12,509 nt of DNA. Source: a virus. Lineage: Duplodnaviria > Heunggongvirae > Uroviricota > Caudoviricetes. The DNA is taken from IMG/VR virus record IMGVR_UViG_2609460344_000006, positions 1 to 12,509 of that record. One strand, 5' to 3'. The notes below the pieces were generated by a model. That model did no database searches. It was not told the DNA's origin and worked only from the letters and a program-made list of their open reading frames with translations. Below, in pieces: positions 7,270-8,620 of the stretch; within the stretch, counting starts at the first letter, position 1, and each line of letters starts with the position of its first letter. The translations under genes and the position numbers were made by a program.

Positions 7270-7300
7270 CAAGCCCACCAGTAGATGGGCTTTGTAATGG
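7270..7300. repeat. Left copy of a 31-bp direct repeat containing a hairpin (AAGCCCA-N8-TGGGCTT)
   Basis: caagcccaccAgtagatgggctttgtaatgg matches 8590-8620 at 30 of 31 positions. It abuts the stop codon (7301-7303) of the 85-aa ORF. Confidence 0.9.
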
Positions 7301-7558
7301 CTACTTCGCTTTTGCTTCCGCTCGCTTACGCCGGCGCTTTTCTTTCTTCTCGGCTTTTGCCATGTCCATGAATGCCTGCATGATCGAGTTCCGCATCATG
7401 TAGCTGACAAAGTGATGATTGACACAGCCGTTGAGGCGCAACTGCTCGCCAAACTCATCCACCGAGGCCAATGCTTCCATCACGCCCTTCTCGCCTTTCA
7501 TGAACGCTGAGAAGTCGCGCCCCGCTCTGGAGGCGCATTCAATGACACGATCACGCAT
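7301..7558 (-). CDS. 85-aa ORF with a lysine/arginine-rich tail; probably the frame-displaced C-terminus of the KilA-N protein
   Basis: MRDRVIECASRAGRDFSAFMKGEKG...AKAEKKEKRRRKRAEAKAK. There is no Shine-Dalgarno sequence before its ATG. It overlaps the end of the KilA-N ORF by 61 nt in the -1 frame, and that frame is already open upstream of the ATG (PVADHNPRASG). Confidence 0.5.
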   Translation of the reverse strand: MRDRVIECASRAGRDFSAFMKGEKGVMEALASVDEFGEQLRLNGCVNHHFVSYMMRNSIMQAFMDMAKAEKKEKRRRKRAEAKAK

Positions 7559-8052
7559 CCCGGAAGCCCGGGGATTGTGATCTGCAACTGGTTAGCCAGG
7601 GAGTTAATCTCAGCGATCAAACCAGGTTTCGTGTAGCGCCATGCCGCAAGGACTTGCCCGCAGAAGCTCGCCATATCTTTTTTCTGATCAAACTCATGAC
7701 ACTTCATATTGAGCTGCGCACTTAAGCTGTTGCGATGCTGAAGTTCTCCGGTGAAGTAGTCATCCAGGACTTTATAGGCTGCATATTTAAATCCGGGGTT
7801 TAGCCATGTTGCATAATCATAAGCAACAAACTTCCCGCCATATGTTCCACCGTGTACACCGCGCTCAGTAAAAACCACAGATTCGTGGTTTTTCTCCAGC
7901 TCGGCTAAGAACTCTTTGGTCTGCTTGTTTCGCAGGTAGTGGTACGGAGATTCAGATTCACTTTTACCACTGGCTTTCCACATATCAGTGAGGCAGATCA
8001 TGCCATCTTCAGCGACACGGATTGGCTGATTGAAGAGGGTTAATGATTTCAT
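7498..8052 (-). CDS. KilA-N domain DNA-binding protein (Roi/antirepressor-like)
   Basis: From ATG 8052 the sequence MKSLTLFNQPIRVAEDGMICLTDMWKASGK...YLRNKQTKEFLAEL...GGTYGGKFVAYDYATWLNPGFKYAAYKVLDDYF is typical of KilA-N. I reject the upstream 23 codons of the track ORF. The tail PGLPGCVIVSLNAPPERGATSQRS looks out of frame. Confidence 0.85.
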   Translation of the reverse strand: MKSLTLFNQPIRVAEDGMICLTDMWKASGKSESESPYHYLRNKQTKEFLAELEKNHESVVFTERGVHGGTYGGKFVAYDYATWLNPGFKYAAYKVLDDYFTGELQHRNSLSAQLNMKCHEFDQKKDMASFCGQVLAAWRYTKPGLIAEINSLANQLQITIPGLPGCVIVSLNAPPERGATSQRS

Positions 8053-8202
8053 GTCGTATACCTGTTCTTTGAAATGAACCTTTGCCGCATAGGAAACCAG
8101 CCCACCGAGGCTCGCCAGCACTAACGGGTATCCTCAAAGGCCCATTCCAAAGGGTCAGGTTCGGTGGTTATTGTGCGCTGCGGTGCGCGGTGAAATATCT
8201 GT

Positions 8203-8228
8203 ACAAAAATGCCCCGCATCTGCGAGGC
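8203..8228 (-). terminator. Intrinsic terminator after the 83-aa gene
   Basis: Minus-strand RNA reads GCCUCGC-AGAU-GCGGGGC followed by AUUUUUGU. The U-G wobble works only on the minus strand. It is a near-copy of the terminator at 9888-9913. Confidence 0.7.
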
Positions 8229-8251
8229 TTTTAGCATGTGGAAAAGGTAGT

Positions 8252-8503
8252 TTATCGTCGCTCTTCAAGATAAGGATCTATGTTGCTAACTTTTTTGTAC
8301 TTCGGATCCTGCGGTAGTCGAACGGCGGGATCATATACAAGCCATATAGATTCAGACTTGCCATCTGAACCATCTGTGTTTTTACATGAGCGTAACTTGT
8401 AATGAATGATTCTATCTACGTCAGCGTACTCGGAGGTTGCATAAACTTCATATTTATTATCTCCGTGGCAAAGAATAGTTTTAACTAATTTTGTAGATGA
8501 CAT
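8252..8503 (-). CDS. Hypothetical 83-aa protein in AT-rich DNA
   Basis: ATG 8503 with AAGGAG 5 nt upstream. MSSTKLVKTILCHGDNKYEVYATSEYADVDRIIHYKLRSCKNTDGSDGKSESIWLVYDPAVRLPQDPKYKKVSNIDPYLEERR. No family recognised. It has its own terminator. Confidence 0.7.
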   Translation of the reverse strand: MSSTKLVKTILCHGDNKYEVYATSEYADVDRIIHYKLRSCKNTDGSDGKSESIWLVYDPAVRLPQDPKYKKVSNIDPYLEERR

Positions 8504-8589
8504 GTCTGCTCCTTTGTAATTGATGGGTATGACATATGACCACCAATAACAGTGCCATATTTCTGGTGATTATTGCAGCAACGAAATTA

Positions 8590-8620
8590 CAAGCCCACCC
8601 GTAGATGGGCTTTGTAATGG
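8590..8620. repeat. Right copy of the 31-bp hairpin-containing direct repeat
   Basis: caagcccaccCgtagatgggctttgtaatgg. It lies 30 nt downstream of the stop of the 67-aa gene. Confidence 0.9.

Follow-up and report, generated by a model that had tools for sequence, protein, structure and literature searches.

Genetic organization of the locus

The window –the whole 12,509-nt stretch of DNA analysed here– covers the late region of a lambdoid prophage of E. coli cM8a, with transcription on the minus strand. Along that strand, the order is an intrinsic terminator (termA), a BRO-N gene and a 67-aa gene, a stem-loop that we call v1, an 83-aa gene, a second terminator (termA'), a KilA-N gene and an 85-aa gene, and v1 again. 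Two cassettes are thus stacked at this locus, each ending in v1.

All these features lie on the minus strand. termA (9890..9917) comes directly after Rz and forms the conserved upstream edge of a slot for accessory genes. The upstream cassette begins with the BRO-N/antirepressor-like gene (8851..9423) and ends with the 67-aa gene (phrog_4439; 8651..8854). Between the latter and the v1 copy at 8584..8620 there is a small extra hairpin, GAGAGCC...GACUCUC (8621..8644). The 83-aa gene (phrog_16949; 8252..8503) is a moron-like insert, whose protein gave no tblastn match in the phage collection and no Pfam or NCBIfam family. Its module ends at termA' (8205..8232), which was called terminator-like and repeats the post-Rz terminator termA with 89% identity. 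The counterpart of termA' carries a "terminator" annotation in ES18.

The second cassette holds a gene with KilA-N and ORF11CD3 domains (7498..8052) and an hkbL-like gene (85 aa, phrog_875; 7301..7558), the homologue of hkbL in HK620. The KilA-N gene reaches 184 aa because the usual TGA stop, as judged against locus L001, has been lost. After the last hairpin of the slot comes a conserved downstream flank of class d3, the Stx-phage type (7213..7262). On the plus strand, a YlcI/DUF3950 gene (6748-7008) converges with the 85-aa gene, and a v1 copy lies between them.

The two repeat copies

v1 is a 38-nt stem-loop, and its core is a 31-bp repeat with the sequence CAAGCCCACC[A/C]GTAGATGGGCTTTGTAATGG. 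The first-pass annotation had reported this repeat in the same orientation at 7270-7300 and 8590-8620 with one mismatch, and we confirmed it: both copies read on the plus strand and are identical at 30 of 31 positions. The repeat occurs at only these two positions of the window when up to three mismatches are allowed, and none of 200 dinucleotide-preserving shuffles contained a match. The hairpin described within it (AAGCCCA-N8-TGGGCTT, without a U-tract) is also there; the terminator scan called neither copy terminator-like, in keeping with the lack of a U-tract. Both copies do sit just 3' of minus-strand units, copy 1 directly abutting the TAG stop of the 85-aa gene and copy 2 lying 30 nt past the stop of the 67-aa gene. 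The 1.3-kb segment between them had been described as carrying the 83-aa and KilA-N genes. Both are there, but the description has to be extended, as the 85-aa gene and the terminator at 8205-8232 lie inside as well.

Copy 1 (7263..7300, minus strand) has the full architecture, with a lower stem and the loop UACU. Its 71-nt context folds at -29.3 kcal/mol (z = -4.5), and its model score is 56.3 bits (E = 1.9e-11). Copy 2 (8584..8620, minus strand) has the loop UACG and a folding energy of -23.6 kcal/mol (z = -5.2), and scores 36.5 bits. It lacks the canonical 3' lower stem GAUAAUGG and has UAAUUU instead, at the junction with the 83-aa module. This junction had no match in IMG/VR, and no other intact v1 joined to the 83-aa module was found. 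The promoter scan detected no promoter-like hexamers at either v1 copy.

On its other side, copy 2 is in known company: SPN9CC and others match window 8586-8644 with 96.7% identity, and the small extra hairpin is conserved alongside v1 downstream of other cargo, namely 67-aa genes and a Rha gene of 228 aa. Chance and local tandem duplication were rejected as origins of the repeat, because the flanks of the two copies are unrelated and each has relatives of its own elsewhere.

A family of sense-strand stem-loops

On the sense strand, v1 reads CCAUUA-CA-AAGCCCAUC-UACN-GGUGGGCUU-GA-UAAUGG. The upper stem, on the transcribed (minus) strand, has 9 bp, formed by AAGCCCAUC and GGUGGGCUU with one U·G pair, and closes on a tetraloop; a 2x2 internal loop parts it from the lower stem CCAUUA/UAAUGG. 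v1 belongs to a stem-loop family that lambdoid and P22-like phages carry on the sense strand of their late operon. Members of the family share an architecture made up of a lower stem CAUUA/UAAUG, a 2x2 internal loop, an upper stem of 9-10 bp, and a loop of 4-6 nt. Sister hairpins at equivalent positions have the same architecture built from different stems.

When sites were anchored on the downstream flank only, a hairpin of this architecture was present at 114 of 116 sites, with three unrelated upper stems. Paired cells amounted to 98.6%, vs. 31-53% with the partner slid, double changes occurred in 8 of 14 pairs, and the observed pairing score was reached by none of 500 shuffles; pairing is inflated by the choice of the covariation seed hairpins with a regex and a folding-energy filter and by the fitting of alignment A2 to the model, and the flank-anchored test is less biased. 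G·U pairs were seen on the sense strand only: its 41 G·U cells would be A·C mismatches on the opposite strand.

The differing upper stems at one position may have come from recombination between paralogous hairpins instead of compensatory mutation in place. The two hybrid hairpins, in loci L059 and L102, record crossovers within the element.

A genome usually has one to three of these hairpins. In HK620, scanned in full and with filters off, only two were found, both between Rz and terminase. One hairpin candidate (v7, a regex match in two loci, L052 and L069) was dropped because the opposite strand is coding there. An Rfam scan of the whole window (E <= 1) returned no family, and a full-text literature search for the hairpin sequence found nothing.

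Distribution and cargo exchange

Of 5,426 complete E. coli genomes, 1,364 carry v1 (median of one place per carrying genome, maximum of four), as do 146 phage records, and the viral scan gave at least 120 loci. Over 36-38 nt it is near-identical across E. coli, Salmonella, and Shigella phages. The scan of species-representative genomes gave a single match, on a 2.9-kb contig labelled as a Bacillota MAG. Two stacked v1 copies are rare: one of the 5,426 E. coli genomes has them, and no other locus of this kind was seen; a seeming second copy in Salmonella phages, where the match ended at query position 1621, was a single hairpin matched by both window copies.

Among the matches listed, the 130 occurrences of v1 adjoin about 10 unrelated upstream cargo classes and about 6 downstream flank classes, in at least 20 combinations and 98 distinct contexts; classes were set by the 40 nt of adjacent flank, as single-linkage on 200-nt downstream flanks merged distinct classes. 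The cargo families are unrelated to one another and comprise KilA-N/hkbL, Rha, MUG113, Tad2-like, and Acb2/Tad1-like genes. v1 starts 0-63 nt past the cargo stop codon, and at 0 nt in six classes. Upstream, a termA-like site lies 0.3-1 kb from v1 in 87 of the 100 loci examined. In lambda-like prophages of E. coli and Salmonella, v1 is the downstream border of a slot whose accessory genes can be swapped.

Natural variants lacking 7301-8620 exist, as at least eight viral contigs have the single-copy form. In one of them, L070, positions 3-3340 align with window 3961-7300 and positions 3305-3484 with window 8586-8764, with one hairpin common to both alignments. The same pattern is repeated in seven further loci, and L019 is among the loci compared. 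Some mosaic breakpoints lie off the hairpins; on the upstream side of the KilA-N cassette, homology stops at ~8166, in unstructured sequence. The 83-aa gene sits between hairpins in loci L130-L140.

Two proposals had been made for the repeat. That it provides homology for swapping or looping out cassettes is well supported at the comparative level, because the 31-mer is widespread next to varied cargo genes and single-copy variants occur. That it is a 3' RNA hairpin carried by morons held in part. Compensatory changes and sense-only G·U pairs favour the RNA reading indirectly. However, the hairpin belongs to the slot or backbone and not to each moron: it also occurs directly after Rz without any cargo (L008, L076), and the 83-aa gene as a rule comes with an intrinsic terminator of its own instead of v1.

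Proposed mechanism and alternative explanations

We suggest that v1 is probably both a structured element of the late transcript and a homology island of ~30 bp for cassette exchange. Family hairpins sit immediately 3' of accessory genes, with the post-Rz terminator as the upstream edge of the slot. Selection would keep the hairpin for its structure, and it may serve the Q-antiterminated late transcript by protecting or processing 3' ends. An island of near-identity of ~31-38 bp would thereby persist amid unrelated DNA. Host RecA or phage recombinases, which are the enzymes likely to act here and need ~30 bp of homology, would then cross over at the hairpin and at the terminator, and such crossovers would swap, stack or delete cargo cassettes. 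RecA and Red recombination need at least ~30 bp of homology (PMC2327257), which the length of the v1 island fits. With two stacked cassettes each ending in v1, recombination between the copies would delete the intervening 1.3 kb: a v1 x v1 crossover would take out 7301-8620 and give the common single-copy form. The two-copy locus appears to have arisen by stacking rather than to be the ancestral state.

It is unlikely, in our view, that the hairpin serves solely as an RNA or DNA element, with no preference for recombination there, and that illegitimate recombination strikes anywhere, as in the Hendrix model, with only gene- and hairpin-preserving joints surviving. Junctions would then merely seem to coincide with the hairpin, owing to the selective survival of joints. 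The conserved sense-strand structure agrees with this explanation, as do the breakpoints outside any conserved element (e.g., ~8166) and the left junction of the 83-aa insert, which shares only microhomology (TTG/TAAT) with the canonical hairpin. However, the hybrids in L059 and L102 are joined at a common GAGTGG motif and have broken stems, which points to homology-guided crossovers and not to selection for function. Moreover, exactly one repeat unit separates the single-copy form from the two-copy form, and near-identity over 36-38 nt exceeds what structural constraint alone needs.

More speculatively, and with a rather low probability, the CAUUAC...GAUAAUG hairpins could be a dedicated cis-acting cassette-end signal, whose single-stranded RNA or DNA form would be recognized by a specific factor, and which would organize a tandem array of exchangeable accessory and anti-defence genes between lysis and packaging. 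The RNA form could be bound by a processing nuclease and the DNA form by a recombination function, with the element's own UAG serving as a universal stop for incoming ORFs. If true, this would be an integron-like phage cassette system without an integron integrase.

It is very improbable that the hairpins are recognition sites of a dedicated cassette mover, be it attC-like single-stranded DNA recombination, a homing endonuclease or an IS200/IS605-type transposase. They do have an attC-like form –an imperfect palindrome at the cassette 3' end with conserved outer arms and a variable centre– and their strand asymmetry fits a single-strand substrate. The abutting stop is TAG in most of the directly abutting cargo classes, as if supplied by the element, and among the neighbouring cargo genes there are some for HNH or GIY-YIG-like (MUG113/T5orf172) proteins. 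Even so, no recombinase or nuclease is common to the loci, most cargo encodes none, and HK620 has only its integrase, far off. The 5' ends of cassettes lie at the terminator or in unstructured DNA, not at family hairpins, and ordinary homologous exchange explains the hybrid hairpins.

Finally, we give hardly any credence to the hairpins being weak intrinsic or Rho-assisted, possibly bidirectional terminators that insulate accessory genes from convergent or read-through transcription, with the repeat as two terminators of common origin: copy 1 does lie between the convergent YlcI/DUF3950 and 85-aa genes, the stems are stable, and the v5 variant is followed by UUUUGU on the antisense strand, but the sense strand has no U-tract, the scan that called neither copy did call the true terminators at 8205-8232 and 9890-9917, the G·U pattern favours the sense strand and not both, and the next gene is co-directional in P22-like phages, so the arrangement is not always convergent.

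Significance

With v1 as an exchange point, the locus gives the linker mechanism of phage mosaicism, long debated, a concrete, sequence-defined case. Between a structured element of ~38 nt and a terminator lies a slot that trades unrelated accessory genes among E. coli, Salmonella, and Shigella phages, and its cargo includes known anti-defence families. v1 could be used as a computational anchor to harvest cargo genes from thousands of prophages, and the two-copy locus of cM8a offers a natural substrate on which short-homology recombination can be measured. Should the hairpin also process or stabilize late mRNA, a regulatory function would be tied to genome plasticity, as with the promoter-early stem-loops (PeSLs) of T4-like phages.

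Comparison with known systems

Integron attC sites have the core sites RYYYAAC/GTTRRRY and work with the IntI integrase and attI. v1 is similar in being an imperfect palindrome at the cassette 3' end, with conserved arms, a variable centre, and often a stop codon at its edge. In contrast, its outer arms are CATTAC/GATAATG, and the 5' edges of its cassettes are not at such sites. Neither the window gene set nor HK620 contains an integron integrase, and no attI was found.

REP/BIME elements occur in hundreds of copies in chromosomal intergenic regions, whereas v1 has at most four places per genome and is confined to the lysis-terminase region of prophages. REP elements are also 3' mRNA stabilisers, and in this respect they are to be compared with v1 together with the RNase III hairpins of T7 (R1.1). 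Like R1.1, v1 is an intercistronic hairpin of the sense strand whose lower and upper stems are parted by an internal loop, and it comes just 3' of genes within a long polycistronic transcript of the phage. An RNase III processing site consists of about two helical turns of double-stranded RNA with an internal loop, which RNase III cuts in vivo; the v1 architecture is partly similar, with 5-7 bp, a 2x2 loop, and 9-10 bp, and its total of 14-16 bp is short for RNase III. v1 has no sequence relation to the T7 hairpins or REP and no Rfam match. As for intrinsic terminators, v1 has the stem, but the sense-strand tails GAUAAUGG and GUAAUUUC contain no U-tract.

Morons, as reported by Juhala et al. 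2000 and Hendrix et al. 2000, are extra genes that some phages have between two genes that adjoin each other in related phages. A moron has a promoter of its own upstream and a terminator of its own downstream. The 83-aa gene, which has a terminator at 8205-8232, resembles morons in being present or absent when the window is compared with L070, L019, and others. The KilA-N/85-aa pair ends in the hairpin without a U-tract. v1 is not the terminator of a moron; it is owned by the slot and exists without cargo. The promoter scan detected no promoter for the inserts and no promoter-like site in 8504-8589 on the minus strand.

In T4-like phages, PeSLs are small repeated stem-loop motifs in hyperplastic regions rich in non-essential genes; each combines a strong sigma-70 early promoter with an effective terminator, and recombination between copies leads to insertions, deletions, and replacements of the genes between them (Arbiol et al. 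2010, PMC2839356; Comeau et al. 2014, PMC4122927). The comparative evidence presented here indicates the same kind of recombination between v1 copies, yielding indels and replacements. v1 differs in lacking both a promoter-like site and a U-tract, and thus the composite motif of PeSLs. Besides, its host phages are temperate and lambdoid, usually with one to three family members per genome.

The modular theory of lambdoid phages is said to go back to Susskind and Botstein, and Clark et al. 2001 reportedly listed seven boundary sequences for HK620. The HK620 record has no such feature annotated at 18881-18918, where its v1 lies, or at 19134-19172. Boundary (linker) sequences are short, conserved among mosaic lambdoid genomes, and proposed as foci of homologous recombination (PMC3029335, PMC2327257). 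v1 shares with them a short conserved sequence, a position at module edges, and unrelated flanks that assort independently, and it also has recombinant forms that differ by exactly one unit. It differs in belonging to a family of structured hairpins that show compensatory variation and strand asymmetry, and in its place between Rz and terminase in the late operon. Read as a structured late-transcript element and a homology island, v1 matches the known concepts of boundary sequences and PeSLs.

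Layout of the late region

The window matches the E. coli strain cM8a chromosome at 100% identity and represents the late region of a lambdoid prophage, in which the genes lie on the minus strand. In the order of transcription, holin and lysozyme precede Rz (9956-10384), just after which lie the intrinsic terminator termA (9917-9890), a BRO-N gene (9423-8851), a 67-aa gene (8854-8651), a small hairpin (8644-8621), and repeat copy 2 (8620-8584). The 83-aa gene (8503-8252), a second terminator, termA' (8232-8205), the KilA-N + ORF11CD3 gene (8052-7498), an 85-aa hkbL-like gene (7558-7301), and repeat copy 1 (7300-7263) follow. 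A conserved flank, a convergent DUF3950 gene, HNH, and terminase lie downstream of copy 1. The usual TGA stop of the KilA-N gene reads TGC in the window; the gene is 19 codons longer (184 vs. 165 aa) and has 61 nt in common with the 85-aa gene (7498-7558).

The 31-bp direct repeat reported in the first-pass annotation was borne out. The 31-mer CAAGCCCACC[A/C]GTAGATGGGCTTTGTAATGG is present twice in the same direction, at 7270-7300 and at 8590-8620, and the copies differ at one position; at up to three mismatches, there was no further site in the window and none in 200 shuffles. Both copies form a stable hairpin, hereafter v1: the 71-nt minus-strand contexts gave -29.3 (z -4.5) and -23.6 kcal/mol (z -5.2), and the plus-strand folds were weaker. 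A consensus terminator scan of the window found neither copy terminator-like; it called the hairpins at 8205-8232 and 9890-9917, both of which are G+C-rich and have T-runs. These terminators are a second direct repeat (89% identity) interleaved with the 31-bp one, and the layout is therefore A-cargo-B-cargo-A'-cargo-B'.

Distribution of v1 and the cargo slot

The v1 pattern was found at no fewer than 120 loci in IMG/VR. With a 40-nt BLAST query, v1 was present in 1,364 of 5,426 complete E. coli genomes (median one place per carrying genome, maximum four) and in 146 records of Escherichia, Salmonella, Shigella, and Enterobacter phages. Among species-representative genomes, the sole match was a 2.9-kb contig (JAEWTL010000129.1) of a MAG labelled Bacillota, which is probably a mis-binned enterobacterial phage fragment.

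The search of related prophages suggested in the first-pass annotation thus found the motif widespread, with different cargo genes adjoining it. In HK620, Stx2 phage 1717, Salmonella phage 29485, and phage Dewey, KilA-N is followed by the hkbL-like gene and, directly behind that gene, one v1. In SPN9CC, v1 and the 24 nt at the right of window copy 2 follow an unrelated 228-aa Rha-family gene. When we classified 40 nt on each side of v1 in 130 occurrences, we recognised about 10 classes upstream and about 6 downstream, which were combined in 20 or more ways, and 98 contexts were distinct. The upstream cargo genes are mutually unrelated: hkbL-like following KilA-N, Rha + ORF11CD3, a second KilA-N type, MUG113/T5orf172, the 228-aa Rha gene, Tad2-like, Acb2/Tad1-like, the 67-aa gene, and a 91-aa gene without family match. 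Of the 100 loci with enough sequence, 87 have a termA-like terminator 0.3-1 kb before v1, so the variable cargo sits in a slot between two short conserved elements. The earlier idea that each moron carries its own hairpin needs correction: v1 belongs to the slot, and in two loci it directly follows Rz without cargo.

At three loci of related phages (L068, about 3250-3600; L024; L078), the v1-bounded slot holds Acb2/Tad1-like and Tad2-like genes. Acb2/Tad1 and Tad2 are known anti-CBASS and anti-Thoeris families, and thus the slot may be a hotspot of counter-defence genes. The stop codon touching v1 is TAG, the rarest in E. coli, in seven of the eight upstream classes with a stop directly before the hairpin. 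For Tad2-like cargo, the ORF has lost 1 nt close to its end and so reads on to the TAG at v1. The hairpin may supply a backstop stop codon.

Single-copy and stacked forms

Eight viral contigs carry the copy 1 left flank, one hairpin, and the copy 2 right flank. In one of them, L070, window 3961-7300 is matched by positions 3-3340 and window 8586-8764 by positions 3305-3484. The two alignments share 36 nt, which are the hairpin, and the contig equals the window minus 7301-8620 exactly; it is the kind of natural variant, with a single repeat copy, that had been predicted. The two-copy arrangement is rare, and the source genome alone among the 5,426 covers the region. In IMG/VR, nothing matched the join between an intact hairpin and the 83-aa module. 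A single phage record has two v1 places, in two different late regions. The 51.7-kb record of Salmonella phage 29485 (KY709687.1) has two different Q-holin-lysin-Rz late regions with v1 in each; chimeric assembly or a double prophage may account for this.

The 83-aa homologues (L130-L140) usually form a small unit: v1, either intact or degenerate, precedes the gene, and a termA-like terminator and another hairpin type of the shared frame follow it in that order. Nine related loci (within L130-L139, about 3890-3930) have a degenerate hairpin before the gene, its 3' arm mutated to GGGTTTGGTTTG, and the window has an intact one, which suggests that a v1 copy decays after loss of its lower stem.

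We infer that crossovers at or near v1 and termA could have produced the window from three arrangements, each of them common: 67-aa gene-v1-flank, hairpin-83-aa gene-termA, and Rz-termA-KilA-N-hkbL-v1. Some breakpoints lie away from both elements: Stx phage homology stops near position 8166, and the stretch 8160-8232 looks like that of a further lineage.

A family of late-operon hairpins

Sister intergenic hairpins occur on the same strand, with a frame in which CAUUA and UAAUG arms are each set off by 2 nt from a 9-10 bp stem that closes a 4-6 nt loop, and differ from v1 in the upper stem. Types v2 and v3 follow a 172-aa HNH gene and v4 a 65-aa gene, all upstream of holin, and many P22-like phages have v5 and v8 at a distance of 200-650 nt downstream from v1. 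In a 12-sequence seed alignment, picked by a regular expression and a folding-energy cut-off that favour high pairing, 98.2% of cells were paired, with both-side changes in 8 of 14 pairs. Its score was reached by 0 of 500 shuffles, and sliding the partner gave 34-51% pairing. A less biased test was anchored solely on the downstream flank TTATACCCTRCACGGGATAAC: at 114 of 116 sites, a hairpin of the family architecture, with one of three unrelated upper stems, lay immediately upstream.

A covariance model found two or three members per locus, all on the late-operon strand. Over the whole HK620 genome with filters off, it found only two, both between Rz and terminase. They are separated by a 215-nt spacer (18919-19172 for the locus) with a possible 28-aa ORF whose TGA is in the second hairpin loop; small CDSs are annotated at the matching position in phage Dewey.

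Among 25 distinct sequences, 98.6% of cells pair, 41 of them as G·U, and the U·G beside the loop is nearly invariant. On the opposite strand, these 41 cells would be A·C mismatches and pairing would fall to about 87%. UACG with a closing C-G pair is the loop seen most often. The G·U pattern and this loop suggest that the sense strand is under selection, with RNA as the simplest case.

Two loci, L059 (8243-8284) and L102, have hybrid hairpins in which the 5' arm is of v5 type and the 3' arm of v8 type, fused at the apical GAGTGG that both types share. Their stems are unpaired (-13.5 and -9.0 kcal/mol, vs. about -20 for intact members), and they appear to be the expected leavings of homologous exchange between paralogous hairpins.

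Proposed role of v1

The most likely account has two parts: the hairpin would be maintained for its structure, and so would serve as recombination homology. Its role would lie in the Q-antiterminated late transcript, most plausibly as a 3' protective or processing structure just after the accessory genes. Because the hairpin would be maintained, v1 offers 31-38 bp of near-identity amid non-homologous surroundings, close to the shortest homology that RecA- or Red-dependent recombination needs (PMC2327257). With the Rz terminator as its counterpart, it would allow cargo to be replaced, stacked, or deleted; in the window, exchange between the two copies would precisely delete the 83-aa, KilA-N, and 85-aa genes. 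At the sequence level, the assorting flanks, the eight single-copy contigs, and the hybrid hairpins support the earlier proposal of homology for cassette swap or loop-out, and the RNA reading is plausible. We regard v1 as a well-defined phage boundary element of an established kind, chiefly of use as an anchor for a slot exchanging accessory and anti-defence genes.

Comparison with known systems

v1 fits neither an attC site nor a REP. Nor does it fit an intrinsic terminator: it has no U-tract, and neither copy was called in the scan. No family matched in an Rfam scan of the window, and the v1 sequence did not occur in the searchable literature. The resemblance to T7 RNase III sites is one of architecture only. 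That short conserved boundary sequences act as foci of lambdoid recombination is an established idea (Susskind and Botstein; Clark et al. 2001, as cited in PMC3029335 and PMC2327257). Having neither promoter nor U-tract, v1 differs from the PeSL of T4-like phages (PMC2839356, PMC4122927), which is its closest worked example.
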